Shown piece by piece: positions 38,981 through 61,660 of a stretch of 64,000 nt of DNA; positions within the stretch are counted from its first letter, which is position 1, and each line of letters starts with the position of its first letter. Source of the DNA: an uncultured Chthonomonadaceae bacterium (lineage in GTDB: Bacteria > Armatimonadota > Chthonomonadetes > Chthonomonadales > Chthonomonadaceae). A program made the translations under genes and the position numbers. The DNA lies in the NCBI GenBank assembly GCA_963817895.1, contig CAWFQB010000004.1, positions 608,001-672,000 on the forward strand, written 5' to 3'. The notes under the pieces are model-generated. The model was not told the DNA's origin. It saw nothing but the letters and a program-made list of their open reading frames with translations, and searched no databases.

Positions 38981-39763
38981 TCACTGTTTGACGCCAGCGG
39001 ATTCTAGCAGATGAACGGAATCCGTTTGATGCGCTATTCTGGCAGCATCCAGCGCGGTTGTTCCCGCTCTGTTACGTATGGTGGGGTCGGCATGATATTT
39101 CAGCAGGATACGCTCAATCTCCACGAAGTTGCGGCTCGCGACCATCATAAGTGCGGTATCCCCGCTATTGGATATGGCATTAACATCTGCTCCATGCTTC
39201 AGAAGCAGCAGAGTATTGGACGCTTGTTCAAAACACGCGGCGTAAATCAATGGCGTTGTGCCGTACTTATCCTGAACATTAATCCGGGCGGAATGAGCCA
39301 GAAGCATCGAAAGTATGTCTGTGTCCTGAAATGAGGTTGCCTCCATCAACAGAGTGTTGCCGTTTGGACTGGATAGGTTGGGGTCTGCCCCGGCTTCCAG
39401 CAGGGTTTGAATGACAGCCTTCTGCCTGTCCCATACTTCCAATCCGTGCATGTCACGAGAGAAAGCACAATGAGAAACCGCAGATTGTAGAGCCGTTCGC
39501 GTCCTGTAGCGTGAGGTAAGCGCCTGCCATCTTCCACTGCGCAGATACTCCCATGTCTCCCTTACGGAATCGCTGTATTGAGCGTTAGGGTCCGCGCCGT
39601 CGCGCAATGCTTTCAGAACGATACTCGGAGAAGCGTCAATAATCCCAACCCGCAGGTCATTGTTTACGGCTGTCTGCCACTGAACGCGCAGAAAGACAAG
39701 ACTCGATATGACCACAACCAGGCCAATCACGATGAGAGCGGATTGTCGGGAAGACTGTTTCAT
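38981..39763 (-). CDS. Membrane-anchored ankyrin-repeat protein
   Basis: GADPN, GTTPLIYAA, GDTALM, GTTALD repeats; N-terminal TM. Confidence 0.9.
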   Translation of the reverse strand: MKQSSRQSALIVIGLVVVISSLVFLRVQWQTAVNNDLRVGIIDASPSIVLKALRDGADPNAQYSDSVRETWEYLRSGRWQALTSRYRTRTALQSAVSHCAFSRDMHGLEVWDRQKAVIQTLLEAGADPNLSSPNGNTLLMEATSFQDTDILSMLLAHSARINVQDKYGTTPLIYAACFEQASNTLLLLKHGADVNAISNSGDTALMMVASRNFVEIERILLKYHADPTIRNRAGTTALDAARIAHQTDSVHLLESAGVKQ

Positions 39764-40368
39764 CGGCTGTTCAGAGTTAGCGTGGCATTGACATCATCTG
39801 CTTCTTCCGTTTTTCGCGGCAGTGAAAAGACATAAGGGATTGGGGTATCGGCGCGTAACAGTTGGTCGGCGGGAACGCGCGTTGTATCGCTTGCGGCGCG
39901 TAACAGGGTATGCGGTTCTGCGGCAATTGCGGAGGAGGCGCGGAGCAGTATACGGGCGTCTTGAGGGGCAGCAAGGTCAAAGTCGTAGAGGGCGTACATC
40001 GGGCGGCCATTGATGAGATAGCGCGGCTTTACTCCCTGCCGCGCGGCGACAGCAGGCAAATCTTCCGCTTCAATCCCCAACAAGTCGCTTGTCTCTTCCG
40101 CCGTGCCGAGATCGAGCAGGCGCAGGCGAGTGTTGAGCAGCCATCCGCCCACGCCGCCAATCGCCGTCCCGAAAAACAGCAAGCCCTGCGCGAAAGAGCC
40201 GTTTTCCCCGACGCGCCATCCCGCCGCCCCCTGACCGAGCGCGAGAACTATCTGCAGTATACCGCCGCCAAGCATCAGGGTACAAAACCCCGGCGTTGGA
40301 ATCCCATCCCCGCCGCCCGCAAAGACAAAGGGTTCTTTCGCTTCATCCCACGCCTGCCGCTTGTTCAT
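39760..40368 (-). CDS. 2-TM protein with HTH-like domain and triple-LLR tail (array A, gene 3)
   Basis: TM pair, GVKPRYLINGRPMY, ILLR..TLLR..QLLR; ATGA overlaps at both ends. Confidence 0.75.
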   Translation of the reverse strand: MNKRQAWDEAKEPFVFAGGGDGIPTPGFCTLMLGGGILQIVLALGQGAAGWRVGENGSFAQGLLFFGTAIGGVGGWLLNTRLRLLDLGTAEETSDLLGIEAEDLPAVAARQGVKPRYLINGRPMYALYDFDLAAPQDARILLRASSAIAAEPHTLLRAASDTTRVPADQLLRADTPIPYVFSLPRKTEEADDVNATLTLNSR

Positions 40369-41015
40369 TGGCGTTGTATCTCCTGCAAGGGTTGCTCATC
40401 AGAAGTTTCCATCTGAATATAGGAAGGGGCGACGGCAACAGCAGGGGCAACAGTCTGCGCCGCTTCTAAATCGGAACTCGGAACACGCAGCAGTTGTTCG
40501 GGATGTGTGGATATGTCGGCAGTGGCGGGCCGCAGCAAAATCTCCTGCGTGTCGTTTGGGCGCGCGGCGGCTCGCAGCAGGATTTCGGAAGCGTTGGCGA
40601 AGTCAGCGGGATTGTAGTAGTCCATGCCGTTGATGCTCATGCGCGGTTTAATGCCTTTATCTTGCGCGACCTGTGCCAGCATCGTTTCCGGTACGCCGAA
40701 CCGGTCTGAAAGCTGATCGGCAGGTTTAAGTGAAAGAATGTGCTTACGTAAACTGCGCATCCACAGGCCCATGCCGCCGAAGGTCAGCGCATGAATTCCC
40801 GATACGTAAACGAGGACGCCAATTGCGGCAGGCCATGAAAGCGTCAACAGCGCGAACAGCAGCAGCGCAAAACACACGCAGGCCGCGCAAACGCCATAGA
40901 TAATAAACCCAGTTCCGACCCCCTTCAGGAGACGTTCCCAATTGCCGCTTCCCCGCCATTGACTGACGCCACGCTTGTCTTTGCCCCCGTATTTAAATCC
41001 CCATACTTGCGCCAT
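40365..41015 (-). CDS. 2-TM protein with HTH-like domain and triple-LLR tail (array A, gene 2)
   Basis: GIKPRMSINGMDYYNPADF, ILLR..ILLR..QLLR; GAGG RBS. Confidence 0.8.
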   Translation of the reverse strand: MAQVWGFKYGGKDKRGVSQWRGSGNWERLLKGVGTGFIIYGVCAACVCFALLLFALLTLSWPAAIGVLVYVSGIHALTFGGMGLWMRSLRKHILSLKPADQLSDRFGVPETMLAQVAQDKGIKPRMSINGMDYYNPADFANASEILLRAAARPNDTQEILLRPATADISTHPEQLLRVPSSDLEAAQTVAPAVAVAPSYIQMETSDEQPLQEIQRQ

Positions 41016-41026
41016 ACCTCACTCCA

Positions 41027-41587
41027 TCATTCTTGCGCCGCCCGCAGCAACTGTTCCGGTTTTGCTTCCTCTGTCCCGACAGAAGGCCGCAACAGCATAT
41101 CTCGCGTTAGCACAGGCATAGCGGACGGGCGCAGCAGGGTGTTGATGTCGCCAAAATCTCTGGGATTGTAGTAGTCCTGCCCGTTGATGTTTATCGTCGG
41201 GGTTATCTGCTTCTGTGCAGCCCACTCCTGCAAATCAGAAAAATCCATCTGGAACTGACGACACATAGCCTCGGAAGATTTCAAATGCCGTAAACGATAG
41301 CGGGTTCTCAGCATCCATACGCCGCTGCCCCCAAAAGTAAATACCCACATCGGATACATGATGACATCCCCGGCACGGCGAAAGAATTGATCCGCTTCCG
41401 GGGAAAAGAGGGGAGCATGATGCCGATGTGGTCTATTCCATTTTACAATAACGGAGGGAATCGTAAGCACAAACATAGATGCGCAAAACAGCCACACGAG
41501 CGCAAGCCAGACGGGCGGCTTATTCCAGCGGCCTTTGTACATGGGGGCGCCCGCTTCACTGACGCCTATTCGCTTGTAGCCAATCAT
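41027..41587 (-). CDS. 2-TM protein with HTH-like domain and triple-LLR tail (array A, gene 1)
   Basis: QITPTININGQDYYNPRDF, TLLR..MLLR..QLLR; directly after miaB. Confidence 0.8.
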   Translation of the reverse strand: MIGYKRIGVSEAGAPMYKGRWNKPPVWLALVWLFCASMFVLTIPSVIVKWNRPHRHHAPLFSPEADQFFRRAGDVIMYPMWVFTFGGSGVWMLRTRYRLRHLKSSEAMCRQFQMDFSDLQEWAAQKQITPTININGQDYYNPRDFGDINTLLRPSAMPVLTRDMLLRPSVGTEEAKPEQLLRAAQE

Positions 41588-41602
41588 CCTGCTTCTCCCA
41601 TT

Positions 41603-43141
41603 TTAGTCTGCCAGTTCACCGGTAAAGCCGGTTAAATTCGCTTCCAGTGCGCGGACGGGAACCAGTTTGCCGATGAGCGAATCCAGTGAACGGGTTCCCC
41701 CGGCGGGAACGGTGAAGTTGACCATTTTCTGGGTTCGGGTGTAGCCGCTCAGACGGTTCGGGTCGCGCTGGCTGCGGCCTTCCACCAGTACCTCAAAGAC
41801 CTGTCCGACCTGCGCCTGATTGATTTCCACCGTGATCTGATTCTGGCGGGCAATCAGGGCGTTCAAGCGTTCGATTTTCACTTTTTGCGGAACCTGATTT
41901 TCCATTGCGGCGGCTTTGGTGTTCGGGCGCGGGCTGTACGCGAACATGAACGCCGAGTCGAAGCGGATTTCTTCCACCATTCGCATCGTATTGGCTACTT
42001 GTTCGTCGGTTTCGCCCGGATAGCCGAGCATCATATCCGTCGTGATGGCGATGCCGGGAACGCGGGCGCGAAGGTTGTCCACGATTTCTCGGTAGCGAGC
42101 AACCGTATAGCCCCGGTGCATCTCCAGCAGCAATTCGTCGTCGCCCACTTGCAGCGGCAGGTGTACATGTTCACAGACGTGTTCCAGCCGCCCGATGGCT
42201 TCAATAAGTTCATCGGTAAAATCGCGCGGGTAGGGACTGGTGAACCGGATGCGCTGTATGCCGCGAATGGCATTGATCTGTTCCAGCAATTGCGCGAACG
42301 GAACGCGGCCTTCCGGCAGGTTTTTGCCATACGAGTTGACCGTCTGGCCGAGCAGGGTGATTTCGCGCGTCCCATTTCGCGCCAGCCCTCGATTTCCGCC
42401 AGAACCTCTTCGGTCGGGCGGCTGCGTTCTCGTCCCCGCGTGAGCGGCACGATGCAAAACGTGCAGAACTTGTCGCAGCCGTACATAATCGGCACATGCG
42501 CCTTCAATTTGGCCTTGCGCTCCACAACGCGGGCCGGAATATCCGCCACAATCGCGCCCTTGCGCGGCGGCAATTGCAGCGCGGTCAGCGTGGTCGTTTG
42601 CGTTTTGCCCCGCGACAGTCAAGAGGAAATAGGGATAAGGGATGAGGGATGAGGGATGAGAGGTACACGCCTCTTTTCCGTTCTCCTCTTCTCCTTTTCT
42701 CCTTTTCTCCTCTTCTAAAACAACCTCGCCCGACTTGACGCGCCGGACCATTTCAGGAATGGCGGAAATATTGCCCGTGCCGACGACCATATCTACATGG
42801 GGAGCGCGGCGCTTGATTTCCACGCTTTCCACCTGCGCCATGCAGCCGCACACGCCGATGACCATGTCCGGGCGGTCTCGCTTGATGTCGCGCAGTCGGC
42901 CTAATTCGCTCCATACCTTTTCTTCGGGTTTGGCGCGGACGGAACAGGTATTGAGCAGCACAACATCGGCTTTTTCCGCATCGGCAACCGGCTGGTAGCC
43001 CATAGATTCCATGTACAGCGCGATCTGCTCCGAGTCTTCCTCGTTCATCTGGCAGCCCCACGTCATAATATGATAGCCGGGCGCAGGCGAAGCGGTTTCT
43101 TGACTGGCGGCGTCAGGCAGAGCAGCGGTTTGCTCGAACAA
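41603..43141 (-). CDS. miaB: tRNA methylthiotransferase MiaB, two compensating frameshifts (about 42600-42700 and about 42390)
   Basis: [37 protein letters not shown] in the alternate frame, [14 protein letters not shown] domain. Confidence 0.95.
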
Positions 43142-43265
43142 TCGTTTAGTAGGTTAGAAATGCTCACGATAATCCCAATCTTAATGCGTTATGATTACAG
43201 GGCGGCGCGATACAGGGCAGCCGTGCAGGTGAAATCGTATCTGGAAATTCCAACGGCAGCGAAAA

Positions 43266-43313
43266 TGTGAAAGCCTTGACAAATCTCACAGGCGAAGTGT
43301 GTGAAATCTCACA
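43266..43313. promoter_or_regulatory. Cluster of CRP/FNR-like boxes between divergent miaB and histidine kinase
   Basis: TGTGA-N6-TGACA (43266-43281), CTTGA-N6-TCACA (43275-43290), TGTGT-N6-TCACA (43298-43313). Confidence 0.55.
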
Positions 43314-43521
43314 ATCGAAGCCCCTACTTTGGCGCGTATTAACGACTCTAGTATAGCAGATACGCCCTGTGGTTGCCGAATTCCAACATCAGGCGGCGCG
43401 TGACGGTAATAGCCCACTCGCCGCGTTGTATATGCGCTGCAAAAGATGCTAAAATTGTAGAACTTCCCGGTGACTTATGCTGAGAAACGGAAGAACGACG
43501 ACAATGACGACAATGACGACA

Positions 43522-44932
43522 ATGGAAATGACAACTCACGATACGGAACAGTTGCGCGACCAATTGCAGGAGATGCGGCAAAACGGCTGGATTTGCGCGA
43601 ACGCCAACTGCATACCGTGCATGAAATCAGTTCGGCCCTCGCCTCGCAGACGCGATCTCAACTCCATTTTGCGGGAAACCCTGCGCGTGTCGCTGAAAAC
43701 AGTCTGCGCGGATGCCGGCTCGCTCTTGCTGTACGACGCGGAGAAGCGCAAACTGGTATTCGAGTTCGTCGTCGGCAAAACGGAACTCATCGGGATGGAG
43801 ATTGATCCCGAAACCGATTTGAACGGCAAGGCTTCGACGGTATTTCGCACCGGGCAACCGCTCATCACGCTGGACACGATGAAGGAGGGCTACAACCGAC
43901 TTTCGATCAGAAGACCGGCTATAAAACGTCCAGTATCATCACGGTTCCCCTGAAAAACATGGGCGGCAAACCGCTGGGCGTGATGCAGGCGCTCAACAAA
44001 ACGGAGGGGCATTTCGACGAAGAGGATCAGGAACTGCTGGAAATCGTCAGCAGTCTCGCGGCCACTTCAATTGTCAACGCGCGCCTGGCCGAAGAAGCGC
44101 AGCTTGCCGCTGTCGCCCGCGCGGTCGGGGATTTGAGCCACGACATCAAAAACGCCCTGACGCCCGTTGAGTCCATGATAGATACCACTGTAGAAGCCTT
44201 CTTTGAGCCGATGTATCAGGCGCTGGATGAGCATCAAGCCGGAATGGCAGGCGCAATCGCCCAAAGTGACGACGGAGATCATGGAGGTGGTCGAGCCGCT
44301 GCGCGCCTGGTATCCCGAAATGCAGATCTTCCGTAAAGGACGGCTGCGCCGACATTCGCGAAATGGTATCGGAAATCGCCGATTACATCAAGGGTACGCA
44401 GTCTACCTATATGGAGGAAAACGACATTCGGGAGGTGCTGGAAGAGCGGCTGCGGCGGCTGCGCGTGGTGGCAAAACAGCGGCGCATCACCCTGCACCTG
44501 AATGAGAATACGGACGCGAATGAGACGACGGTTCCCGTATTCGCTTTCGACCGGCGGCTTGGTCGGACGGGCCGTTTTCAATCTCATCAACAACGCGATG
44601 GGAGCCATCAACGACGCCGTGAAAAAGAGGACGCTGGAACTGCGCCCCTTCAACATCTGGATACGCGCCTCATCCGTTCAGGAGGGCGAATGGCCGGAAG
44701 GCCGATATTGCCTGCTGGAAGTCCGCGACGACGGGCCGGGCATCCCGCCCAAAGTGCTGGAATCGCTGTTCACGCCACAGGTCATCAGCACCACGATTGG
44801 CGGAACGGGCATCGGCACGCGCTTCGTGAAAAGCGTGGCCGACGCGCACGGCGGCGCGGTCGGCGTGGAAAGCGAACCGGGCAACGGCGCGCGTTTCTGG
44901 CTGAAACTGCCGCTTCGACAGCAAAGGAGTGA
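43522..44932 (+). CDS. GAF-domain sensor histidine kinase, several frameshifts
   Basis: ADAGSLLLYD..GVMQALNK (GAF), LSHDIKNAL H-box, FNLINNA, DDGPGIP, GGTGIG. Confidence 0.85.
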
Positions 44933-44968
44933 AGGAATGAAATATCATTCATCCTCTCATCCTTTGCC

Positions 44969-45669
44969 TCACGCGCTTTGCAGCACCTTGTCTTCCAGCC
45001 CTTTTTTGTTCAGGACGGTCAGGCGATAGCGGCTGTCTACGGAAATCAGATTTTTGGCGCGGTACGCGACCATTACTTTGTTGACGCTTTCGCGGGCCGC
45101 GCCGACGAGATCGGCGATGTCCTGCTGCGTCAGGCGGATGGGGATGAGAATGTTGCCGTCCGGCTGCGGTTCGCCATACAATTCGCAAAACTCCACGATT
45201 TGAAAGGCGACAAGGCCGTACACGTCGAGGGTACAGTGCGCCTGTATTCGCACGTTCGCCAGACGAAGGCGGCGAGCCAGAATCACGCATCATGTTGCGG
45301 GGAAAAGTGGAGCCGTCCTTCATCAGGCGGTCAAAGGCAACGCGGTCAATGCTGATCATCGTGGTCGGTTCCTGCGTGACCACATCGGCGGAGCGTCCGT
45401 TAGAGTCGATCAGGCTCATTTCGCCTACCGTATCCCCGGTGGCGAGCAGGGCGAGAAACACCTGCTGGCCGTCCGGCAGCGAAGTAGAGACACGGACGGT
45501 TCCGTGCTGAATAACGTAAAAAATGTTCGCCCGGATCTTCCTGACTGAAAAGGATCGCGTTGGCTTTGTAAGTGCGTTCGCGCGCGTGTTCGGCAATGAA
45601 CGCCAGTTGGTCGGGAGTCAACCCATCGAAAAGAGCGATTTTGGGCAGGCGATGTGGATCAAGTGCCAT
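44969..45669 (-). CDS. Crp/Fnr-family regulator, two frameshifts
   Basis: GEMSLID...RSADV cNMP pocket; LTQQDIADLVGAARESVNK HTH. Confidence 0.9.
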
Positions 45670-45942
45670 GAACGTGCAACCCTCCCCGGACATAAGCGCC
45701 GGAACTGCGATTAAGCGCGTCAAACTGTGAAAAAAGATAAGCAATAGTACGGTGACATGAACGCATTATAGACCGCGCCGCAACACTTGTCAAGCCGATG
45801 CGCCGGGGAAATGCGTTCCTATTATAACCGGCGTTTTGGATGGCGATAAAAGCCTGTTCCTGTAGGTTCCCCTTCTCCCAATTTTGGGAGAAGGGGTTAG
45901 GGGTTGAGGGCTATTTGGGATAGACAGCAAAGGAGGCATCAA

Positions 45943-46557
45943 ATGCCGGAAGAAATCGAATTGGATATACGGGAACAGCAGGAAAAAATGGAGGAGATGC
46001 ACAGGGAACACGAGGAACATTCCGAGCATCCGCCCTCGCAACTATGGGTGCGCCTGATCTCCCTGAGTACAGCATTTCTGGCCGTGATTGCCGCTGTCGC
46101 CGCGCTGCAATCCGGTTCCCTTGTGAACGAGGCGCTGCTGGAACAGATCAAGGGGACGCAATCGCAGGCGAAAGCGTCGGATAGCTGGACGTATTATCAG
46201 GCGAAGGGACTGAAGCAGAACGGCGCGGAGCAGACCGCCGCGATTTTAGCCGCCAATCCCGCGCAGACAAAGGCGACGGAACATTACCGCGAAGAGGCGA
46301 AACGCTACTGGGAAGAGAAAGAGAAGCAAAAGGCCGACGCGGAAAAGCTGGAGGAGGAGCGCGACAAATCCAACGAAGCCTCCGAACACTTCATGCACAA
46401 GCACCATATCTTCGCCATTTGCGTGACTCTGACGCAGATCGCCATCGCGCTTTCCGCCATCGCCGCCCTGACCCGCCGCAAAGACGTCTGGTACGGAAGT
46501 CTCGCAGTTGGGTTGGTGGGATTATTTTACCTCGTTTATGGCTATGCGCAGCATTGA
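45943..46557 (+). CDS. DUF4337-family membrane protein
   Basis: AGGAGG RBS, ASDSWTYYQAK, QIAIALSAIAALT. Confidence 0.85.
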   Translation: MPEEIELDIREQQEKMEEMHREHEEHSEHPPSQLWVRLISLSTAFLAVIAAVAALQSGSLVNEALLEQIKGTQSQAKASDSWTYYQAKGLKQNGAEQTAAILAANPAQTKATEHYREEAKRYWEEKEKQKADAEKLEEERDKSNEASEHFMHKHHIFAICVTLTQIAIALSAIAALTRRKDVWYGSLAVGLVGLFYLVYGYAQH

Positions 46558-46566
46558 GAAGCGTTT

Positions 46567-47538: not shown

Positions 47539-47594
47539 CCTGAAAAATCCTGTTCATCCTGTCTATTTTCCGTTGTTTGTCTACCGTCTACCGT

Positions 47595-50703: not shown

Positions 50704-50735
50704 TTCCTTTTGGCTAAACAGTTTGAGATTATAAT

Positions 50736-53594
50736 ATGGCACCTAAACTTACACTAACAAACCTCTTTTGTCTCCTGTTTAGCATTGCGTTGTTGCTTGC
50801 GAGTAGCATTATGAACGCCGCGCCCGTCACACAGGGACGCGAACGCCTGCTCATGGACAGTGGCTGGAAGTTCCATTTAGGCGATCCGGCGGGCAATGCG
50901 ACGCAAACACAGACCACGCGATTGCAATGGCGCTACAAGTCCGTAGCGCAGGGACAGGAGAATTTGGAAACGCCTGCCGCTCCCGATTTCCAGATGGATG
51001 AGGGCTGGAAAGACGCTGGCGTTTCGCAGGACGTGTTCAACGGGCGGCGCGGCTTCGCGTGGTATCGCGCCACGCTTCCCAACGTACCCGGCGTGACGCG
51101 GGTTCTGCATTTCGAGGGCGTGGATGACAACGCGACGGTTTATGTCAACGGCAAAAAGCTGCTGCATCACGAGGGCTACGACGAGCCGTTCAATGTGCCG
51201 CTTGCGGGCGTGTGGAAAGAGGGCGGGCCAAACGTCGTTGCTGTGCTGGTGGAAAATACGGCGGGCGCGGGCAGCATCGGCGCGGTTGGATTTCAGGAGA
51301 GCGAAGTCGCCGTAGACGAAACGTATTCCAAACCCGGTTTTCAGGACAGCGACTGGCGCAATGTCCACCTGCCGCATGACTTTGTCGTAGAAGGGAAGTT
51401 CACGCCCACTGCGGATGCCAGTCATGGGTCGCTGCCGACGGGAATCGGCTGGTATCGCAAAACGTTCACGGTTCCCGCTTCGGATAAAGACCGCGCCCTG
51501 TGGGTGGACTTCGACGGCATTTACCGCAACGCTTATATCTGGCTGAACGGCAAACTGCTCGGCAACCATAAGAGCGGCTACATCGGGGCGCATTACGACA
51601 TCAGCAGATTTGTGAATTACGGCGGTACGAACACGCTGGCAGTACGGGCGGACGCGCGGGCGCAGGAGGGCTGGTGGTACGAAGGCGGCGGCATCTACCG
51701 CCACGTCTGGCTGAACAAGGCCAATGTTGTCCATATTTTGCCGAACAGCATATACGTATCCTCACGGGTACAGGGCGACAGCGCAAACCCTGAAAGCGCG
51801 AATGTGCAAGTCAAATTTAAAATGTCAAGTTGGTATTATGGGGGGCCGCGCCGCATCAGCTATCAAATTCGCGCGGAAATACGAGCATCTGACAATTCTG
51901 ATACCAAAATTGTTGCCCGTGCTAGCGATTCTGGCACTGAAGCGGATGAGGAACCCGGATCAGTTCACAATCTGCAATTCACCATTCCGCATCCTCGTCT
52001 CTGGTCTCTCGAACAGCCAAATCTCTATCAAGTCGTCATCCGCATTCACCTCGACGAATACGATAATGCAGGAACAGGTAAGGCACGCGACGTTCTGGAT
52101 ACTACTTCGACGACATTTGGCATCCGCACCATCAAATTCGACGCGCAGAAGGGCTTTTTCCTGAACGGCAAGCCGGTCAAGATACAGGGGACGTGCAACC
52201 ATCAGGACTTTGCGGGCGTGGGCATCGCCATGCCGGACAGTCTGCTGGAATGGCGCGTGAAGAAACTCAAGGCAATGGGCAGCAACGCCTATCGTATGTC
52301 GCACAACCCGCCCGCGCCCGAACTGCTCGATGCCTGCGACCGGTTGGGCATGCTGGTCATGGACGAAACGCGGCATTTAGGCGACACCTACCGGCCTAAA
52401 ACCAGTCGTGGCACGCCCGTCAGCGATCTTGGCGACCTGAAAGAAATGGTGATGCGCGACCGCAACCATCCGAGCATCATTCAATGGTCACTGTTCAATG
52501 AGGAGGGCTTGCAGGGCAGTGACGAGGGCGCGCGTATCTTCAAAGCCATGAAGGAAGCCACGCTCGCGCTCGACCCGACCCGCCCCACGACGGGAGCCAT
52601 GAACGGCGGGTGGGGATACGGTATTACGTTTGTTGAAGATTTGCAGGGCATCAACTACGCCCCCGGAGCTTATGAGGGCTTTCACCAGAAGTTTCCCGAC
52701 ATGCCTTTGTTCGGCAGCGAAACGGCAAGCGCGGTGAATACGCGCGGCGAATACGTCACCGACCCGCAAAAAGGCTATGTCAGCGCATATGACGTGAACG
52801 CGCCGAGTTGGGGGCAAACGGCAGAAACGGCGTGGAAAGCTATCGGCACACGCGAATACGTAGCAGGCGGGTACGTGTGGACGGGATTCGATTACAAGGG
52901 CGAACCCACTCCCTACGGCTGGCCGTGCATCAACTCGCACTTCGGAATCATGGACGAGTGCGGCTTTCCCAAAGACACGTACTACTATTACCTCAGTTGG
53001 TGGGGCGACAAACCCGTCGCGCATATCCTGCCGCACTGGAATTGGCCGGGAGATGAGGGCAAACCTAAAGACGTGTGGATTCACAGCAACGCCGACCGGG
53101 TGGAACTGTTCCTGAACGGCGCGAGTTTGGGCGCAAAAGACATGCCGCGTTTGGGACACCTGCAATGGAGCGTCCCCTACGCCCCCGGCCAACTGGAAGC
53201 AAAGGGCTACAAAGACGGCAAAACTATTGTAACCGATGTGGTAGAAACGACGGGCAAGGCCACGCAAATCCGCCTCAAACCGGATCGCAAAACCATGACC
53301 GCGAACGGCGAAGAGGTCATCATGGTAGAAACGGAACTGCTCGACGACAAAGGCCGCGTGGTTCCCGATGCCGACAACGAAGTAATGTTTGAGGTGACGG
53401 GCGCGGCGCATATCGGCGGCGTCGGCAACGGCGATCCGAGCAGCCACGAACCCGACAAAGCCAACAAACGCCACGCCTTTCACGGCCTGTGCATGGCCGT
53501 CGTACAGGCATCCGAGCAGCCCGGTTCCGTGCAGGTCACAGCCACGTCCCCCGGCCTGAAACCCGCCAACGCCACCTTACAGACAAAGAAGTGA
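50736..53594 (+). CDS. GH2 beta-galactosidase-like glycosidase
   Basis: LPHDF, WWYEGGGIYRHV, GTCNHQD, RMSHNPP, RDRNHPSII.WS..NE, WTGFDYKGEP. Confidence 0.92.
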   Translation: MAPKLTLTNLFCLLFSIALLLASSIMNAAPVTQGRERLLMDSGWKFHLGDPAGNATQTQTTRLQWRYKSVAQGQENLETPAAPDFQMDEGWKDAGVSQDVFNGRRGFAWYRATLPNVPGVTRVLHFEGVDDNATVYVNGKKLLHHEGYDEPFNVPLAGVWKEGGPNVVAVLVENTAGAGSIGAVGFQESEVAVDETYSKPGFQDSDWRNVHLPHDFVVEGKFTPTADASHGSLPTGIGWYRKTFTVPASDKDRALWVDFDGIYRNAYIWLNGKLLGNHKSGYIGAHYDISRFVNYGGTNTLAVRADARAQEGWWYEGGGIYRHVWLNKANVVHILPNSIYVSSRVQGDSANPESANVQVKFKMSSWYYGGPRRISYQIRAEIRASDNSDTKIVARASDSGTEADEEPGSVHNLQFTIPHPRLWSLEQPNLYQVVIRIHLDEYDNAGTGKARDVLDTTSTTFGIRTIKFDAQKGFFLNGKPVKIQGTCNHQDFAGVGIAMPDSLLEWRVKKLKAMGSNAYRMSHNPPAPELLDACDRLGMLVMDETRHLGDTYRPKTSRGTPVSDLGDLKEMVMRDRNHPSIIQWSLFNEEGLQGSDEGARIFKAMKEATLALDPTRPTTGAMNGGWGYGITFVEDLQGINYAPGAYEGFHQKFPDMPLFGSETASAVNTRGEYVTDPQKGYVSAYDVNAPSWGQTAETAWKAIGTREYVAGGYVWTGFDYKGEPTPYGWPCINSHFGIMDECGFPKDTYYYYLSWWGDKPVAHILPHWNWPGDEGKPKDVWIHSNADRVELFLNGASLGAKDMPRLGHLQWSVPYAPGQLEAKGYKDGKTIVTDVVETTGKATQIRLKPDRKTMTANGEEVIMVETELLDDKGRVVPDADNEVMFEVTGAAHIGGVGNGDPSSHEPDKANKRHAFHGLCMAVVQASEQPGSVQVTATSPGLKPANATLQTKK

Positions 53595-53619
53595 CAGGTA
53601 AATCGGGCGAGCAGTAGCA

Positions 53620-53648
53620 TTGACAGAGTAGATATTTGCCGTTATAAT
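53620..53648 (+). promoter_or_regulatory. Consensus sigma70 promoter
   Basis: TTGACA (53620-53625)-17 nt-TATAAT (53643-53648), 72 nt before the first cyclase ATG. Confidence 0.85.
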
Positions 53649-53720
53649 GCTCTTATATCCCTCTATTTGCAGGGACATAGAAGTTATAACTACACAACTT
53701 CTGCTTGATGAGGCGCTGAC

Positions 53721-54293
53721 ATGACTACTGACATAGAAATCACCGCGCGGCCACATACCTCCGCGCCAACTCGTCTCATGGCAATTGTGATCGCGGATAT
53801 AGTTGGTTCCACGCGTTTAAGTTACGAAGCAGGCGATCTGGCATTGCATACGGGAATTGGTCAACTGCTTGCGCGTGTCTCTCATCTTTTGGAGATTCAT
53901 TCAGGCCGATTAATCAAGGATATAGGCGATGGCTTCTTCGCCGTGTTCGAGGATTCTGCCGCTGCCACAGAGTTTGCTGCCGAACTGCTGCAAACTCTTG
54001 ATCGGGAGCCTATTCTCGTTGGAAATAATAAGATTAGTTTAAGGATGGGATTGCATGTAGGGAGAGGGCAACTGCAACAAACTTCGTATGGGGTGGATGT
54101 GTTCGGGGCATCCGTAGAATTAGCGGCCCGCTTGAATACATACGCGCCTCCCGGGCAACTCGTTGTGTCGAAAACCGCTTTTGACACATTGCCCGATAAT
54201 CTGCAAGCCTCCTTTCAGCCAATAGGAGAACTTTTCCTCAAGGGCGTCGCAACTGCAATTCAGGCGTATGTGTTGACAAAGACGGGAGAGTAG
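53721..54293 (+). CDS. Stand-alone class III nucleotide cyclase domain protein 1
   Basis: ADIVGST, IKDIGDG, LRMGLHVG, DVFGASVELAAR, LKGV. Confidence 0.88.
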   Translation: MTTDIEITARPHTSAPTRLMAIVIADIVGSTRLSYEAGDLALHTGIGQLLARVSHLLEIHSGRLIKDIGDGFFAVFEDSAAATEFAAELLQTLDREPILVGNNKISLRMGLHVGRGQLQQTSYGVDVFGASVELAARLNTYAPPGQLVVSKTAFDTLPDNLQASFQPIGELFLKGVATAIQAYVLTKTGE

Positions 54294-54299
54294 TCTGCA

Positions 54300-54950
54300 A
54301 TGCCGCCTGATACTGTGGACGTTCCCGAAGTAGCGACAGAAGCTATTGTTATTGTAGATTTAGTCGAGTCGGCGTCTACGAGTAATTTATTTGGATGGTA
54401 TGCGGTTGGCCGCTCTTTGATGCGTGACCTGCGTGGTATGATCCATGAAGTAGGCGATGCGCGGGGGCTTCAGTGCCTGAAGAGTATAGGCGATGGGTAC
54501 TTGCTTGCCTTTCGAGCTAACTCCTCTGCGGAGTTAGCTGTTCTTCATGCCATAGAAAGCGCCTTGCTGCTTCTGGACTTGGTCTCGAAGCGCAATCGCG
54601 CGGTTCCAGAAGAACGTGTTATTAATTTGCGATTAGCGGTTCATTTTGGTGAAGTGGATGTTATCGCCAACGACCGCGAAGGGCCGCATGTCACGTATGC
54701 TTTTCGTCTCGAATCCATTGATAGAGATGCGCTTGCCGACGCGTTCAACCCAATTCCTCCTGAAGATTTGCCCTTGCGAAACTATATCCTGTGCAGTGAA
54801 GAGGCAGCCGGTATTCTGGAAAGGCGTTCCTCCCTGTACGCGATTACGCGCATTGGATTGTTAAAGTTACAAGGATTCCCCGGCTGGCGCGAAGTCTTTT
54901 TGGTACTGCCGATACATAGCAATGTATACACGCCTGAGTCTGCTATTTGA
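54300..54950 (+). CDS. Stand-alone class III nucleotide cyclase domain protein 2
   Basis: VDLVES, LKSIGDG, LRLAVHFG, DREGPHVTYAFR, LQGF. Confidence 0.8.
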   Translation: MPPDTVDVPEVATEAIVIVDLVESASTSNLFGWYAVGRSLMRDLRGMIHEVGDARGLQCLKSIGDGYLLAFRANSSAELAVLHAIESALLLLDLVSKRNRAVPEERVINLRLAVHFGEVDVIANDREGPHVTYAFRLESIDRDALADAFNPIPPEDLPLRNYILCSEEAAGILERRSSLYAITRIGLLKLQGFPGWREVFLVLPIHSNVYTPESAI

Positions 54951-55131
54951 TTAATGTACCTCTTGAAGACATCGGCAGGTTCCAGAGAACGGAAAAGCAA
55001 GGCGCATCGCGTTGTACCCGCGTCTATGGAACCTGCCGCGCAATTTTCCGAGTAACGCCGCGTGGTTCCCGACGCCGACAACGTAGGTGTTCATCGCGGA
55101 AAACTGCAATGAGCCAAAGAAGGCATAAACC

Positions 55132-55671
55132 ATGTCTGTTACGGATAAATTGCGTTCTGCTGTTATGAAGGTACAACAAGGAAGCCGCGTACAACGAGAG
55201 TTGTACGTTGCTATACCGTTTGAAGCAGCGTTTGCAATGTGTCTGGAAGCGGTTCAGGCGATCTCCGGCTGTTCGATTAAAGCGCAGAGTCCACAGGCAG
55301 GTGTAATATGGGCTATTACGCGCGTAAACTGGCAAACTTTCGGGGATACGATTACATTGAAGCTCACCGCGTTGGATGATGGGCAAACGCGGGTAGATAT
55401 TAGCAGCAACACAACTCTGTATCAATTCATAGATTATGGACGTAACGCGGGACACATACGTGCGATTACAAGCCATTTGAATAGGGAGCAGGAAACGCTG
55501 TTGCGCCACGCCGATAAACCGGAAGCTGCCGGGGTAACGCTGTTGCGCGCCGCGCAGGCGCAAACGTCTACTGCGCCGCGCGAATTGCTGCCTCTGCTGA
55601 CAATGAGAACGTTTGATGGGCGTTGGCATAGCAGAAGGCATACTGTAGACCTCTTTCATAAGTCCTTGTAA
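55132..55671 (+). CDS. DUF1499-like protein with triple-LLR tail (true stop probably 55616)
   Basis: TRVDISS..IDYGRN pattern; ETLLR..VTLLR..RELL. Confidence 0.7.
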   Translation: MSVTDKLRSAVMKVQQGSRVQRELYVAIPFEAAFAMCLEAVQAISGCSIKAQSPQAGVIWAITRVNWQTFGDTITLKLTALDDGQTRVDISSNTTLYQFIDYGRNAGHIRAITSHLNREQETLLRHADKPEAAGVTLLRAAQAQTSTAPRELLPLLTMRTFDGRWHSRRHTVDLFHKSL

Positions 55672-55707
55672 GCGCGGCAGGTCTTATCTCATTCAAGAGA
55701 CTTATGA

Positions 55708-57132
55708 CAGTATCTTTGCACTTTTGGGTTCAGGCCGCCAAGAGTAGCTGCACCTGCTCTGGCGTGGTTCCTTGTTGGTAGTGGTCGAATACCCATTGCA
55801 GCAGATTGTTCTGGTGTTGTGCCTGTATTTGGCGTCTCATGTGTCCGATACTGACACTTTGCTGTCTGTTCTCAACCCTCGGCTTCGGTAGAGAGGCGCG
55901 TTGTTCTTCCAGAAACACGTAGGCCAGACACGCAAGCGTCCAGAAGCGCACGACGGCAACATCGCTCATCATCTGGTAGTGGTCGGTGCCGAAGAGTTCC
56001 TTGACATCGGCAAAGAACGTCTCGATGTGCCAGCGGACGGCGATAATGGCAACAAGCGTTGGGGTGTCCGCGTCTACCAGACTGCTGACGTAGAAGGTTG
56101 TCTTGTGCGGCGGATCCTCCAGGTGACGCTTCACGCACAGCACTTGACACGCGCCTAACTTGCGCACCAGCGTTCGCCGCCGATGCACCCAGAGAACCTG
56201 CCCGCCCGTGTCCGAAGGCCAGACCACCTTCTCGAACTGCTCGTCCGTCACAGATGCGGCGTAAACCGACAGCTTTTGCCAGACTTTGTTTTCCTGCGCG
56301 TCCGTCACGCGCAGACTGCGGTTGCAGGCTAGACCGCCGCTGAGGTCGAAGCCGCGTTGCTTGGCCGCTTTCCACAGCGCTTTGTTCATGTACCACGCAT
56401 CTACCAGCGCATGCGTGTGCGTGTCGGGGGCAGGGACAAAGGTTTGCACACACGAAACCGCCATCGCGACCTTGCTCACGAACGGCGTTTCTTGCGCTTG
56501 GCACACGTTCTTGGTCCGGTACATACGTGGCAGCAAGGGACAACGCCTGCCAACAAGCACATACAACGCTTGGAACAGGCTATGCCCGCTCACCCGCTTG
56601 CCGTGTGTGCTGCTGTGGTGACGCCCTAAACCGCGCATCGTTTTGGCATACGGCTTGGCATGGGTGCTGTCATCCATAATCAGGTAACCGGTGAGCAGGG
56701 TTGCCTTCGGACGACCGGGCGCTTTGCCGCGCTGTTGTCGTTGGTGTTGATGCGCGTACTGAACGCTTGCTTGCTGCTGTTGCCGAAAACGGGCTTGCCA
56801 CTGCTCTGCTAAAGCGGCTTCGCTCCACGGCGCACGGGCAAAGAAGCGCGACAGTCCGGCTAAAGTGACACTGCATTGCACTTTGTGCAACATTCCTGAG
56901 AGTGTGCGTCGGCCTTCGACTTGCATGAGCGCCAGCAGTACGGTTTCGAGGTACTTGAACTGAGGCTTGCTGAACACGCAACGAAATGCGGCTAGGAATT
57001 GACAAAGTGCCTGACTTGCGCAGATAATAGGAGTGGGCATGGTTTTCCTCGGGAATGGATGGTTGGCACTTTCCATTTTCCACAAAGAAAGCCATGTCCG
57101 CTACCCCTTCTTCAAAAAGTGCAAAGATACTG
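55708..57132 (-). mobile_element. Complete IS701-like element, 1425 bp
   Basis: 18-bp IRs CAGTATCTTTGCACTTTT (55708-55725; reverse complement 57115-57132); direct repeat TTATGA (55702-55707, 57133-57138). Confidence 0.93.
55730..57040 (-). CDS. IS701-family DDE transposase
   Basis: LIMDDS, LVDAWY, RWHIETFFADVKE. Confidence 0.92.
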   Translation of the reverse strand: MPTPIICASQALCQFLAAFRCVFSKPQFKYLETVLLALMQVEGRRTLSGMLHKVQCSVTLAGLSRFFARAPWSEAALAEQWQARFRQQQQASVQYAHQHQRQQRGKAPGRPKATLLTGYLIMDDSTHAKPYAKTMRGLGRHHSSTHGKRVSGHSLFQALYVLVGRRCPLLPRMYRTKNVCQAQETPFVSKVAMAVSCVQTFVPAPDTHTHALVDAWYMNKALWKAAKQRGFDLSGGLACNRSLRVTDAQENKVWQKLSVYAASVTDEQFEKVVWPSDTGGQVLWVHRRRTLVRKLGACQVLCVKRHLEDPPHKTTFYVSSLVDADTPTLVAIIAVRWHIETFFADVKELFGTDHYQMMSDVAVVRFWTLACLAYVFLEEQRASLPKPRVENRQQSVSIGHMRRQIQAQHQNNLLQWVFDHYQQGTTPEQVQLLLAA

Positions 57133-57165
57133 TTATGAAAGAGATCTTGTGTATGAGGAGACAGA

Positions 57166-57675
57166 ATGGAACCAAAAACCGAACTGGAACTGTGCCGGAT
57201 GCTTCTGATTATGCACCTGCGCGGGTTTGTGTATGAACTGCGGCAACTGCCTGCCGATAAATGGGATTGGACGCCCGATCAGGCCGCGCCCACTGCCCGA
57301 ACGGTTGCGGTACATGCGTGGCAATGGCTGATTTGCGACCGACAGCACATTGAGGAACCGGACGCGACAAAACACGCCGATGTGCCGGATGCGCCCCACG
57401 ACCCGGAAGCGTTTTGCGCCGCGTTCGAGGCGGAAACGGAGAACTGGAACCAACTATTGCGCAATCTGACGCCGGAACAACTGGACAGCCCCCGCAAACA
57501 GTTCAATTTTGCAGACTCCAGGATGAACGTGCGCGGCTTTATCGGCCATATCATTCAGAACACCATTTACAAGCACGGACAATTCAGCACCCTGTTTTTC
57601 GCGCTCGGCTGCGATGGCACGGAACCTTACGACGCGCCGTTCCCCAATCCCATCTATGCGGAGCATTGCCGCTGA
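57166..57675 (+). CDS. DinB/YfiT-family protein
   Basis: WDWTP, VAVHA, IYKHGQF; GAGGAG RBS. Confidence 0.75.
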   Translation: MEPKTELELCRMLLIMHLRGFVYELRQLPADKWDWTPDQAAPTARTVAVHAWQWLICDRQHIEEPDATKHADVPDAPHDPEAFCAAFEAETENWNQLLRNLTPEQLDSPRKQFNFADSRMNVRGFIGHIIQNTIYKHGQFSTLFFALGCDGTEPYDAPFPNPIYAEHCR

Positions 57676-57678
57676 AAA

Positions 57679-58533
57679 TCACGCTTGCGTTTCTTCTTGT
57701 TCAGATTGGGACGCCCGCAATAACTGTTGGGGGCGTTCCGTGTTTGTGGGGTGAGTGGCGCGTAAGAGAGTTTCGGGTTGGGAGGTAGGCATATCGGCTG
57801 CGCGAAGAAGGGTTTCCGGCACTTCCTGCCGCAGCAGACGGGCTTCCATAATGGGAGCAAGTTCCAGCGCCTTCCAGCTTATGCGCTGATGTTGGGCGTA
57901 TGTGCAGATGGTTGCGCCGAGGGCTTGCATCTGTCGCAGGGAATTGCGATTGCCGATGAGCGCGAGCGCCTGTAACGTGCGCAGGGGCAATGTCTCGTCA
58001 AAGTGTTCGCCGGAATACAGCGAAGGCACAGCCAGCCTCCAAAGCATCTCCTGCATCCTGCCGTTCAACAACCCGGCGTCCGCTTCCCTAACATGTTCGA
58101 GCAGCCGGGTAATAGCGCGTATAACTTCGGGATGCTTGCCCCATGCGAACCGCGTTCCCTGTATCAAGGCGGGCAGAACGCGCAGATCGTCGGTTTGGGT
58201 CAGAGCATAAGTGGCGAGACGCTGCCCCGGCCCCGGATCGTAGATAAAGGCGCCAAGTAATACCAACGCCATACTGATAGGGAATAAGGCGGCAACAAGC
58301 GAAGCACATCCTAAAAAAATTGCGAACGCGCCAAAGAAAATGAGAAGATACCCTGCAATTTTGGGGCGCAACGTTTCTTCCGTCGCAATGTATTCCAGCA
58401 ATGCCGTAATCGTACGCGGGTCAAGTTCGTACAGTTCGGGTTCGGAAGGCCAGTCGCGTTTCAAGTGATGCAGTCGGCGTATCAACTCTTTTGCGCCGGA
58501 TTGTCCTATTACTTTGGGTAGGTTCTGCGGCAT
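57679..58533 (-). CDS. 2-TM + HEAT-like protein with triple-LLR tail (array B, gene 3)
   Basis: YALTQTDDLRVLPALIQ, ALALIG, TLLR..TLLR..QLLR. Confidence 0.8.
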   Translation of the reverse strand: MPQNLPKVIGQSGAKELIRRLHHLKRDWPSEPELYELDPRTITALLEYIATEETLRPKIAGYLLIFFGAFAIFLGCASLVAALFPISMALVLLGAFIYDPGPGQRLATYALTQTDDLRVLPALIQGTRFAWGKHPEVIRAITRLLEHVREADAGLLNGRMQEMLWRLAVPSLYSGEHFDETLPLRTLQALALIGNRNSLRQMQALGATICTYAQHQRISWKALELAPIMEARLLRQEVPETLLRAADMPTSQPETLLRATHPTNTERPQQLLRASQSEQEETQA

Positions 58534-58576
58534 TGCGGTTCCTGGAAGCGCGGCGTTGGCGCAGGGAGAAAACAGT

Positions 58577-59476
58577 TCAGGCGGGCATGTCGGCGTTGTC
58601 GGCACTGGTGGCGCGAAGCAATTCTCCCGCTGAAGTATCCTGTCGTTCCTCAGACGAACGCAAGAGGCTTTCAACGGCTTCGGGTTTGCGCTCAGGCCGC
58701 AGCAACACGTCTTTGCCCTCCTTCTTCGCGATACGCTCTTGAATTACCTGCGCGCAACGTTCGGCAACTACTCTCGGCTCATTCAGAAGCGACCCGTTTT
58801 CGAGAAAGCGTTCTACGTCAGGTAAGTCTCGTTTGTCGCCTACCTGCTCCAGCAGACGCAGTATCGAAAAAGCGCGTTCCGGCGTGTAAGCAGGTGTCTT
58901 AATTTCTGTAGAATTCATGGGAAACAGAAAACTGCGCATCCGTTCGCGTTGGCGCGTATTCAAGGCGTCTACATTCGCAGTCTGCATCAGGGGGAGCAGG
59001 CGCACAACGGCCTCATTTACCGACAGGATAAGGCTGGAATAAACATGGCCGGGATGCTCATCGGCATCTTTAAGTTCAAGTATGGGGCCGAGCATAATTG
59101 GGTCGCAGGTTTTCAGGATGTAGCGAGCAAGCTGTTGTTCAACTTTAATATCTTGACGCGCATAAGCGGTAAATAGGCTCGTTATCAGCATAAGAGCGCC
59201 GACGATGAGAAATGAACACCAGATAAGCGTAATCGGACCGCCAAAGATTATCCGTAGTTGGATTACAACGAATGAAATAAAGAATGAGTAAACGGTCATG
59301 TGTGCCAGAGCGATAAAATGGCTGGTATTGCGCCGTACCCGCGCCACGAGTACCCGGAACTCATCAGGAGTGAGCAGGGGAGTTTCGGCATGTTGTTCGG
59401 CTGCGGATGGAGATGACGGCTGCATGGCGTAGTATTCCGCGCGTAATCGTGATTCCTGTTGAGGGTAGAAACTCAC
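58577..59476 (-). CDS. 2-TM + HEAT-like protein with triple-LLR tail (array B, gene 2)
   Basis: DPIMLGPILE, AVVRLLP, LEQVGD, VLLR..SLLR..ELLR. Confidence 0.8.
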   Translation of the reverse strand: MSFYPQQESRLRAEYYAMQPSSPSAAEQHAETPLLTPDEFRVLVARVRRNTSHFIALAHMTVYSFFISFVVIQLRIIFGGPITLIWCSFLIVGALMLITSLFTAYARQDIKVEQQLARYILKTCDPIMLGPILELKDADEHPGHVYSSLILSVNEAVVRLLPLMQTANVDALNTRQRERMRSFLFPMNSTEIKTPAYTPERAFSILRLLEQVGDKRDLPDVERFLENGSLLNEPRVVAERCAQVIQERIAKKEGKDVLLRPERKPEAVESLLRSSEERQDTSAGELLRATSADNADMPA

Positions 59477-60321
59477 AATTCCCGTTCCTCTCCCGTACTG
59501 GCACGCAGGAGTTGTCCCGTCGGTTCGGGAGTTGTGGCGTGAGCGGCGCGAAGAAGCGTGTCCGGTTGATTGGTGGGCGTATTAGCGGTGCGCAGGAGGG
59601 TTTCGGACACTTGCTGACGTTTCAGGCGGGCTTCCATGAGCGAGATGAGTTCTCGCACGATCTCTAAAGCAGAGACACCGCCGTATAACCACATAGAATT
59701 ATGGGCGAGTTGCTTCAAGCGCGTCAGCGTGGTTTGGCTGCCGATGGCGGCCAGAATGTGCAGCGTGAGCAGCATGGTTTCACTGGATCTGGTTGACGAC
59801 AGACCTTGCATCTCAACGTTAATTATCCAGAGTTGCTTTTGCTCCGCGTCGTCCAGCAGTCCGACGTGGTCTTCCGTGACGTGTTCGAGCAGGCGCAGTA
59901 TGGCGGCGCGTATCTGCGGATGCCGTCCCCAGGTGTGGCGCGTCGCCTGTATAAGCGTGGGCAGTGCGGCAACGTCGTTGGTTTGCGTGAGGGCGTAGAC
60001 GGCGTAGGGGTACTGTCTTGCGGCAAGGACGAACGGGAGCAGCAAGAGGGCTTCACAGGTGGCAACCCACAACCCCAGGGCGAAATCCCCCTTTAATGCG
60101 CCGGCTGCCAGAGCGAACAGCACCAGTGACCGGGCGGTAAGCGCAAGACTATGGTGTGTTTTTGCGCGGGAAGCGATGTAGTCCTGCAAGGCTTCGATTT
60201 GCAACGGAGTAAGTTGACGGAGCAGGGGTTCGTCCGCCCAGCGCCAGCCTCGGCGGGAAAGCAAGCGCATGATGCGTTTGGCTTCTCGATGCGGATGCGA
60301 GTTAAATTTGATGGCGGGCAT
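59473..60321 (-). CDS. 2-TM + HEAT-like protein with triple-LLR tail (array B, gene 1)
   Basis: YALTQTNDVAALPTLIQ, close paralog of 57679-58533; TLLR..TLLR..QLLR. Confidence 0.8.
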   Translation of the reverse strand: MPAIKFNSHPHREAKRIMRLLSRRGWRWADEPLLRQLTPLQIEALQDYIASRAKTHHSLALTARSLVLFALAAGALKGDFALGLWVATCEALLLLPFVLAARQYPYAVYALTQTNDVAALPTLIQATRHTWGRHPQIRAAILRLLEHVTEDHVGLLDDAEQKQLWIINVEMQGLSSTRSSETMLLTLHILAAIGSQTTLTRLKQLAHNSMWLYGGVSALEIVRELISLMEARLKRQQVSETLLRTANTPTNQPDTLLRAAHATTPEPTGQLLRASTGEEREL

Positions 60322-61651: not shown

Positions 61652-61660
61652 TCTCCGATG

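Follow-up and report, generated by a model that had tools for sequence, protein, structure and literature searches.

A Triple-LLR C-Terminal Tail Shared by Unrelated Proteins of the Chthonomonadales Probably Docks Its Carriers on One Partner

Results and Discussion

In the present study, a DNA stretch of 64,000 nucleotides from an uncultured Chthonomonadaceae bacterium (assembly GCA_963817895.1, contig CAWFQB010000004.1, positions 608,001 to 672,000; the whole stretch is referred to as the window) was analyzed for a peptide element consisting of three Leu-Leu-Arg (LLR) units set at fixed distances near the C-terminus of proteins with different bodies. This triple-LLR tail is real, undescribed in the literature and databases searched, and probably docks all of its carriers on one shared partner. 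A six-frame scan of the whole window for the triple motif showed that it terminates exactly seven open reading frames (ORFs), the same ones that the initial annotation had reported, with positions and spacers in agreement. The two spacers comprise 11 and 12 residues (11/12) in six of these ORFs and 10/12 in ORF 58577, and between 4 and 39 residues follow the last unit.

Prevalence and Conservation of the Tail

Within the source genome (designated G000; other G numbers are our labels for genomes of relatives, and L numbers denote loci), a loose regular expression for the triple motif matched 53 out of 66,005 stop-to-stop frames, five of which were off-pattern and were removed before profile seeding. 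The iterated tail profile recovered 86 frames with at least 29 bits, the next-best frames scoring 20 and 16 bits and the best reversed frame 13.4 bits; because the 86 include several frameshift fragments, the gene count is nearer 80. Among the 88 frames scoring at least 16 bits, the match ended no more than 51 residues before the stop codon, and no more than nine in 68 of them. The check proposed in the initial annotation, a regular-expression search at C-termini, placed the motif far above chance there: the strict triple expression occurred in 40 out of 7165 called genes, always within the last 90 residues, and in none in each of 20 shuffles. Up to approximately 1% of a proteome carries the tail, and tandem fusions retain an internal tail copy. 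P0012 was rejected as a carrier, its profile match being a chance one in a sequence with internal repeats.

The unit follows the consensus [P/A/S]-[D/E/Q]-[T/Q/I]-L-L-R-[A/P]-[A/S] and recurs with a period of 14 to 15 residues. After omission of the five out of 86 tails without a full triple, Arg was present in 81, 81, and 76 of the 81 scored tails for units 1, 2, and 3, respectively. The 11/12 spacing was recorded in 81 out of 152 non-redundant tails, and almost all of the others were within one to two residues of it. Among 26 tails with this spacing, different codons were used at 2448 out of 3884 identical residues, matching the expectation from the codon usage of the genome. In seven orthologue pairs, a changed residue was found for 1 out of 63 LLR codons, 80 out of 175 spacer codons, and 488 out of 1273 body codons (38%); synonymous change amounted to 39–49% in LLR, spacers, and bodies alike. 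Based on the codon, orthologue, and spacing results, the constraint acts on the peptide and its period and not on the DNA, and it is purifying selection at the protein level, on L-L-R only. Such a constraint had been proposed from differences between the LLR codons, which were confirmed across the seven window motifs and agree with the orthologue residue test.

In its composition, the tail contains few aromatic residues and 1.2% Lys, and is rich in P, E, S, T, A, and Q. The extreme C-terminus varies, Glu being the commonest last residue (22 out of 86 carriers). The two positions after the Arg (R+1 and R+2) are occupied by A/P and then S/A. A ribosome arrest peptide of the RAPP type (R-A-P-P or R-A-G-P) was rejected, because Pro is not among the common residues at R+2.

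Protein Families Carrying the Tail

After trimming of the tails, the bodies of the 86 ORFs fell into clusters of 53, 17, 3, and 2 members plus 11 singletons. The cluster of 53 unites transmembrane (TM)-hairpin/HEAT proteins with soluble HEAT proteins, and the cluster of 17 consists of small two-TM proteins featuring an L-V-R variant of the unit. In total, the tail-bearing bodies comprise TM-hairpin/HEAT, small two-TM, TM/winged helix-turn-helix (wHTH), soluble HEAT, DUF1499-like, and Spo0M (arrestin-clan) proteins, with four-TM proteins and small soluble domains in addition, and body identity among carriers is 20–40%. Pfam domains detected in 77 scanned carriers were limited to HEAT, Spo0M, and weak matches, with no toxin or enzyme domain, and HEAT_2 exceeded its cut-off in several members of the main subfamily. 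The tail is a portable module grafted onto at least six unrelated bodies, three of them in the window, which accords with the earlier claim of at least three different bodies; rather than being confined to paralogues of one ancestral gene, it occurs in multiple body families.

The presence of a body does not predict the presence of the tail in every family. In the source genome, close homologues of the bodies that have no tail either carry a frameshift or truncation or are generic HEAT proteins. The TM-HEAT body was found in three families of other orders, and 13 homologues from five genomes of other orders scored no more than 3.4 bits with the tail profile and end soon after the HEAT domain. 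Spo0M proteins of the order carry the tail in 9 out of 21 cases and lack it in 12, one of the latter being cut by a contig end, and DUF1499-like proteins carry it in all three cases found, across two families.

Regarding the window itself, the description of its carriers as seven otherwise unrelated proteins was overstated, since they represent three body types: three TM/wHTH paralogues, three TM-hairpin/HEAT proteins, and one DUF1499-like protein. The paralogues (mutual BLAST E-values of 1e-8 to 1e-13) lie on the minus strand and combine a TM hairpin with a putative MerR-like wHTH domain, which was called for ORF 39760 from the alignment pattern and a weak HTH_17 match in a homologue. They form a three-gene tail array starting with ORF 41027 behind a miaB-like gene (41027..41587, 186 aa, motif at 41042-41137) and continuing with ORF 40365 (40365..41015, 216 aa, motif at 40485-40580), for which an orthologue with 61% identity is present in L087, and ORF 39760 (39760..40368, 202 aa, motif at 39853-39948). 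The TM-hairpin bodies with a HEAT-like solenoid are likewise encoded on the minus strand, by ORF 57679 (57679..58533, motif at 57715-57810), ORF 58577 with its shorter first spacer (58577..59476, motif at 58613-58705), and ORF 59473 (59473..60321, motif at 59503-59598; HEAT_2 E-value of 0.006). Among these, 57679 and 59473 are paralogous (E-value of 1e-27), and 58577 connects to both via the genome-wide body cluster.

ORF 55132 (55132..55671, plus strand, motif at 55498-55593) encodes a soluble DUF1499-like body (E-value of 0.005, below the cut-off) and has no relative among the other window carriers. Its motif had been written with a tentative third LLR; the first two units were found as described, and L-L-P stands in place of the third. 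The DNA is consistent with a frameshift of one base behind the second Leu of this unit, the neighboring frame stops within eight codons, and two intact homologues elsewhere retain three LLR units. Directly behind this ORF lies an insertion sequence (55639-57155) with a DDE transposase gene (55730-57085) and inverted repeats of 22–23 nt, and just upstream of it are two tandem stand-alone class III nucleotide cyclase domains (53721-54950). Apparent frameshifts split many genes of the source genome (miaB-like, sensor kinase, acyl-CoA ligase, ClpB, ClpC, and DnaK), including window genes at 41603-45750 and 61658-63400, with the miaB-like gene adjoining the tail array; the widespread splits suggest indel errors in the assembly.

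Taxonomic Distribution

The tail profile matched 2920 out of 1.84 billion cluster representatives at an E-value of 0.001, the named homologues belonging to Chthonomonadaceae. In a phylum sample of 251 genomes, with 28 candidates scored per genome, 23 genomes were matched, all of them Chthonomonadales, compared to none of 225 others, and a deeper search of two outgroup genomes reached a maximum of 15 bits. Order-wide, 63 out of 68 genomes were positive, with between 3 and 86 tail copies each, and the five tail-negative genomes represent two genera of a sister family and a third family. A DNA-pattern scan of GTDB yielded at least 80 titled loci. Among the matches listed, 59 scored at least 20 bits; the loci at this level, at least 59 in number, are labelled Chthonomonadaceae, Chthonomonadales, Chthonomonas, Armatimonadota, Fimbriimonadia (one), or unclassified, and the 21 loci among the matches listed that are labelled as other phyla all scored below 20 bits. 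The tail was also detected in L072, a record labelled as the cultured species Chthonomonas calidirosea. A link to mobile elements was rejected: no tail match was obtained in 72,556 plasmid and 50,697 phage records, three viral pattern loci all remaining below 20 bits. Furthermore, a GTDB scan with a single protein returned no confirmed relative, and the ESM Atlas returned nothing for the tail, a full protein scoring 0.90 to an Armatimonadota cluster. The tail is restricted to one order and is nearly universal there.

Predicted Structure and Topology

The AlphaFold model of the main subfamily is confidently helical (mean predicted local distance difference test score, pLDDT, of 88) and shows a HEAT-like solenoid into which a long hairpin, hydrophobic at its tip, is inserted. 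Fold matches to the body model were generic ARM/HEAT and hairpin proteins, the nearest being ARM/alphaRep; the best match reached Z 9.8 with a root-mean-square deviation of 4.0 over 160 aligned positions, and none was found at an E-value of 0.001 or better. As modelled, the body has the stacked helical repeats of a HEAT/ARM-like solenoid. In the full protein, the first LLR closes the last helix and the remaining tail has a pLDDT of approximately 50. The tail alone, modelled with 150 sequences, gave a predicted template modelling (pTM) score of 0.15, and none of its helices reached four residues. A folded mini-domain was rejected on this result, and the tail is predicted to be intrinsically disordered.

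A TM-grade segment was identified in 65 out of 86 carriers (approximately three quarters), and a hairpin-sized hydrophobic span in 50 out of 71 examined carriers. In these 71, the hydrophobic block is preceded by 3.1 and followed by 2.4 K/R on average, compared to approximately one D/E. As judged from sequence patterns, most of the hydrophobic segments lie internally as hairpins flanked by basic residues, and a lipobox-like pattern occurred in 1 out of 86 carriers. We infer that both termini are cytoplasmic, which would place the tail on the cytoplasmic face of the inner membrane.

Comparison with Known C-Terminal Signals

No description of the tail was found in the searched literature, in which a brief mention in subscription papers or supplements could be missed, and it is not mentioned in the passages of PMC4959169 that were searched. 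Database comparisons led to the same result, in line with the initial annotation, which knew of no named family: 43 tails reached a best E-value of 0.018 in Pfam-A, with no more than two members per family, and of 0.009 in NCBIfam, with single members, 150 tails reached 0.02 in PHROG, and the best value for PDB sequences was 0.4.

Encapsulin cargo-loading peptides resemble the tail in being short C-terminal peptides common to unlike proteins; unlike the tail, they consist of a single motif and reside on soluble enzymes encoded beside the shell gene. SHOCT (PF09851) is likewise short, promiscuous, and C-terminal on unrelated bacterial bodies, with fixed internal spacing and unknown function, but represents a 30-residue two-helix unit with a conserved Gly and Glu in many phyla (PMC3581485), whereas the tail has no predicted fold, a triple LLR repeat, and a range of one order; PF09851 gave no match to tails at E-values up to 10. 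The GlyGly-CTERM, PEP-CTERM, and LPXTG signals are also many-to-one C-terminal tags whose carriers are alike only there and whose partner is expected by co-distribution, but they combine a motif, a TM helix, and a basic cluster on exported signal-peptide proteins (PMC3237569). The tail is hydrophilic, repeated, and predicted to be cytoplasmic, and lacks a TM helix and a basic cluster. The tail behaves as a many-to-one C-terminal tag, but in these features it is neither a SHOCT domain, a CTERM signal, nor an encapsulin peptide.

Two adaptor systems are closer in their logic. The XB/XBR peptide of SspB, which binds the ClpX zinc-binding domain (ZBD), is a disordered C-terminal Leu-basic motif tethering an adaptor to an AAA+ oligomer, with one motif per chain and one adaptor (PMC7226468), compared to three per chain and up to 86 proteins for the tail; its LKxh motif fits tail unit 2 only, and the ClpX ZBD looks alike whether or not a genome encodes tails. 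The PY-motif tails of alpha-arrestins parallel the Spo0M carriers, both combining an arrestin-clan fold (in Spo0M, PF07070) with a C-terminal short-motif tail and the logic of a membrane-protein adaptor. However, alpha-arrestins are eukaryotic and use a PPxY motif, a WW-domain partner, and the recruited ligases Nedd4/Rsp5 (PMC9105457), whereas the tail consists of LLR units in a bacterial host, mostly on HEAT/TM proteins.

Genomic Neighborhood

Another tail gene was located within 2 kb for 40 out of 86 tail genes, and the longest array comprises 17 tail genes in 24 kb of G256, the arrays lying among housekeeping genes. In 20 neighborhoods from five low-copy genomes, neither an adjacent processing enzyme nor, even at 3–5 copies, a partner gene was found. 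Genes of one tail subfamily, a doubled TM-HEAT protein, lie behind an extracytoplasmic function (ECF) sigma gene and a gene for a single-TM anti-sigma-like protein. Of the best 30 loci of the anti-sigma-like family, 11 included a tail gene or a body gene, compared to 1 out of 49 control loci after three generic HEAT fragments had been set aside. This anti-sigma-like family behind ECF genes (L380, L304, L387, L390, L395-L424) is Pfam-less and single-TM with a large C-terminal domain; some members have a zinc anti-sigma-like N-terminus, and the family forms tandem arrays of its own. It was found in 43 out of 68 genomes of the order and not found in the five tail-negative genomes.

At C4:38000-54000 (L005), a cassette island contains small two-TM tail genes on the same strand, TM-ankyrins, and unknown small proteins. 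Its genes share 5' and 3' DNA and include chimaeric members, and the island shows one route by which tails can be swapped. TM-anchored ankyrin-repeat proteins are much expanded in the source genome (75 ORFs, many sharing an A-G-A-K/R-E-like end), and one such gene at 38981-39763 lies directly behind the three-gene tail array of the window. As a partner they were rejected: for 12 out of 75, a tail gene is located no more than 3 kb away, compared to a background of 6%, but five of the 12 come from one island. Toxin-immunity arrays were likewise rejected, no recognizable toxin being present by long arrays among the flanking genes listed (BLAST to the source genome only), as were defence families, for which PADLOC gave scattered weak matches only (4 out of 70 members). 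In several genomes of the family, tail genes are interleaved in a MoxR/DUF58/vWA-like cluster named by sequence pattern and not by profile (L003, i.e., C12:8000-19500; L084, L086, and L110).

Proposed Function and Search for a Partner

With moderate confidence, we propose that the tail acts at the cytoplasmic face of the membrane as a three-valent docking motif through which variable bodies are linked to a single oligomeric partner. Each LLR would insert into an equivalent pocket of this partner, and the three units together would provide avidity. The carriers would constitute a repertoire of variable bodies and a constant tail, in which the body (hydrophobic hairpin, HEAT solenoid, or arrestin-clan Spo0M fold) would recognize a membrane-associated client and the tail would recruit the shared machine to it. 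The family shows repertoire behavior, with 3 to 86 copies per genome, long tandem arrays, and divergent bodies. Operation may be akin to that of the alpha-arrestin PY-motif tails or of the SspB tail on ClpX, without membership in either group. Within the docking proposal, the machine most likely serves membrane quality control or proteolysis, with FtsH, Clp, the ARC/UBact proteasome, and a PspA/SPFH scaffold as candidates; we regard this assignment as evenly balanced, and it is the best guess because of the Spo0M and ECF links. Spo0M belongs to the arrestin clan (PMC9105457) and is an FtsH substrate in Bacillus subtilis (PMC5325327).

A bolder version, tentative and on balance unlikely, is a eukaryote-like adaptor system, in which a diversifying repertoire of hairpin/HEAT and arrestin-clan bodies would feed its constant tail into three equivalent sites of the machine. 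Clients would then be foreign toxins, phage proteins, anti-sigma factors, or damaged complexes, and the machine a UBact ligase/ARC proteasome or an undescribed scaffold.

Several results weigh against the docking proposal. The search yielded no partner, and no candidate tested tracked the tail: ClpX, ARC with UBact, ClpC/ClpB, PspA, and SPFH occur equally in tail-positive and tail-negative genomes, and the N-domains of the candidate machines have no feature covarying with it. The published ClpX-ZBD consensus LKxh suits unit 2, where A/V/I/L occupies R+2 in 79% of 150 tails, but not units 1 and 3 (25% and 35%). In addition, no gene family recurs next to most tail genes, the ECF link concerns one subfamily only, with none of 27 ECF-like genes in the source genome followed by a tail gene within 5 kb downstream, and the suggested topology is based on hydropathy and a charge count, not on a dedicated predictor.

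Individual candidates were rejected on several grounds. For the ClpX ZBD and the ARC N-domain, no residue pattern splits positive from negative genomes, and the single-gene trees are too weak to separate loss from late gain. PspA and SPFH were found in all five genomes tested and were discarded as tail-specific partners. Some carriers have an expanded set of stand-alone ClpC N-domain proteins, but only two Clp_N matches were obtained in genomes with 78 tails. An anti-correlation of DivIVA with the tail was present in five genomes and vanished over 68. DivIVA (PF05103) was not found at an E-value of 0.05 in 24 out of 68 genomes, including the tail-positive G000, G270, and G022, and a DivIVA/GpsB-binding Arg motif was rejected on this basis; the distribution of DivIVA in the order is patchy, several near-complete genomes giving no match. 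McsB (PF00217) was found in two tail-negative genomes and one positive genome, and not in the tail-positive G022 (99% complete) and G000 (81%). The encapsulin family PF04454 was not found in any of the five tail-bearing genomes examined, four of them 96–99% complete, other shell families not being searched. Encapsulin, DivIVA, and McsB are unlikely partners. The modular, multivalent peptide tag of the initial annotation is supported, whereas its compartment-shell and export versions are not, because of the missing encapsulin, the lack of a TM helix or basic cluster, and the mostly membrane-anchored carriers with a predicted cytoplasmic tail. The partner would be either a universal machine, a lineage-specific gene product, or the tail family itself.

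Hexameric ClpX and ARC each have three dimeric N-domains, a number that matches the three units and serves as a lead only. Side observations were made on several of these machines. Stand-alone ClpC N-domain proteins fused to other domains are expanded in the family (C1:1255040-1256875; C4:792505-793560; L369), and the ClpX ZBD of much of the phylum (L209, L214-L240) has an unusual C-x-L-C start and an altered loop. A complete UBact/proteasome locus at C14:118016-130149 (L210) contains an ARC ATPase, Dop/PafA-like genes, UBact, and proteasome subunits. The UBact D-L-L-K-R stretch loosely resembles the tail unit, and 1.7 kb upstream there is a HEAT gene whose tail is degenerate.

Alternative Explanations

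The tail may instead be a degron that targets the protein bearing it to turnover by an AAA+ protease and does not recruit a machine to a client. Its C-terminal, disordered location would suit this role, as would the steady degradation of GFP fused to an ssrA-independent ClpX-binding peptide (PMC12373786) and the fate of Spo0M as an FtsH substrate (PMC5325327). We nevertheless consider it unlikely: the extreme C-terminus is unconserved, with Glu commonest and up to 51 residues beyond the motif, the carriers are nearly all HEAT/TM proteins and not regulators or enzymes, and McsB, required for a phospho-Arg degron, was not found in the tail-positive G022 or G000.

Alternatively, the tails could bind the HEAT solenoids of their own or other members and thereby form a lattice that coats the inner membrane face, with no need for an outside partner. 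Arg-rich peptides are known to bind ARM/HEAT grooves, the body fold resembles such solenoids, and low-copy genomes have only HEAT-bearing members, both membrane-bound and soluble. However, the TM-HEAT body occurs without the tail in three other families, AlphaFold (70 sequences) left the tail off its own solenoid, and body divergence is far too fast to be expected of a shared binding site, all of which renders self-assembly quite unlikely.

It is improbable that the units are three redundant sites at which the carriers are activated or inactivated by an Arg-specific protease or a modifying enzyme. The near-invariant Arg after two Leu and the Ser at R+2 in 94 out of 150 first units would agree with such sites, but this Ser is not retained in units 2 and 3, fixed spacing is needless for redundant sites, and Pro directly follows Arg in 97 out of 150 second and 74 out of 150 third units, a residue that blocks most Arg-specific proteases at this position.

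An export or compartment-loading signal (CTERM-like sorting, secretion, or an encapsulin cargo peptide) is very improbable. The many-to-one C-terminal homology on unlike proteins recalls GlyGly-CTERM (PMC3237569), but neither a TM helix nor a basic cluster is present in the tail, the carriers are mostly integral membrane proteins, no toxin or enzyme domain was detected among the 77 scanned, and the shell gene was not found in the five carrier genomes.

Finally, the tail could be RPE-like, the in-frame translation of a selfish DNA repeat or of a scar left by recombination, and have no protein role; the local DNA similarity of 65–80% that the small two-TM genes share within one island and the chimaeric genes there would agree with this. 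This origin is already refuted by the codon and orthologue tests, with different codons at most identical residues, saturated synonymous sites, strong purifying selection on LLR, tails of singleton bodies only approximately 54% identical to their nearest DNA relative, and all 86 matches in frame and C-terminal (frames of at least 60 codons searched).

Conclusions

The reuse of a short linear motif by dozens of proteins is a typically eukaryotic feature, and the known many-to-one C-terminal tags of bacteria mostly serve export or anchoring. The tail is directly testable, since it corresponds to a 40-residue peptide with obvious point-mutant controls and the cultured species Chthonomonas calidirosea is among the labelled carriers. 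It provides a handle on approximately 2,900 clusters of "hypothetical" proteins and, in a barely studied phylum, implies an as yet undescribed hub protein or machine. If the adaptor system were true, it would be a bacterial counterpart of the alpha-arrestin/Nedd4 or F-box adaptor logic.

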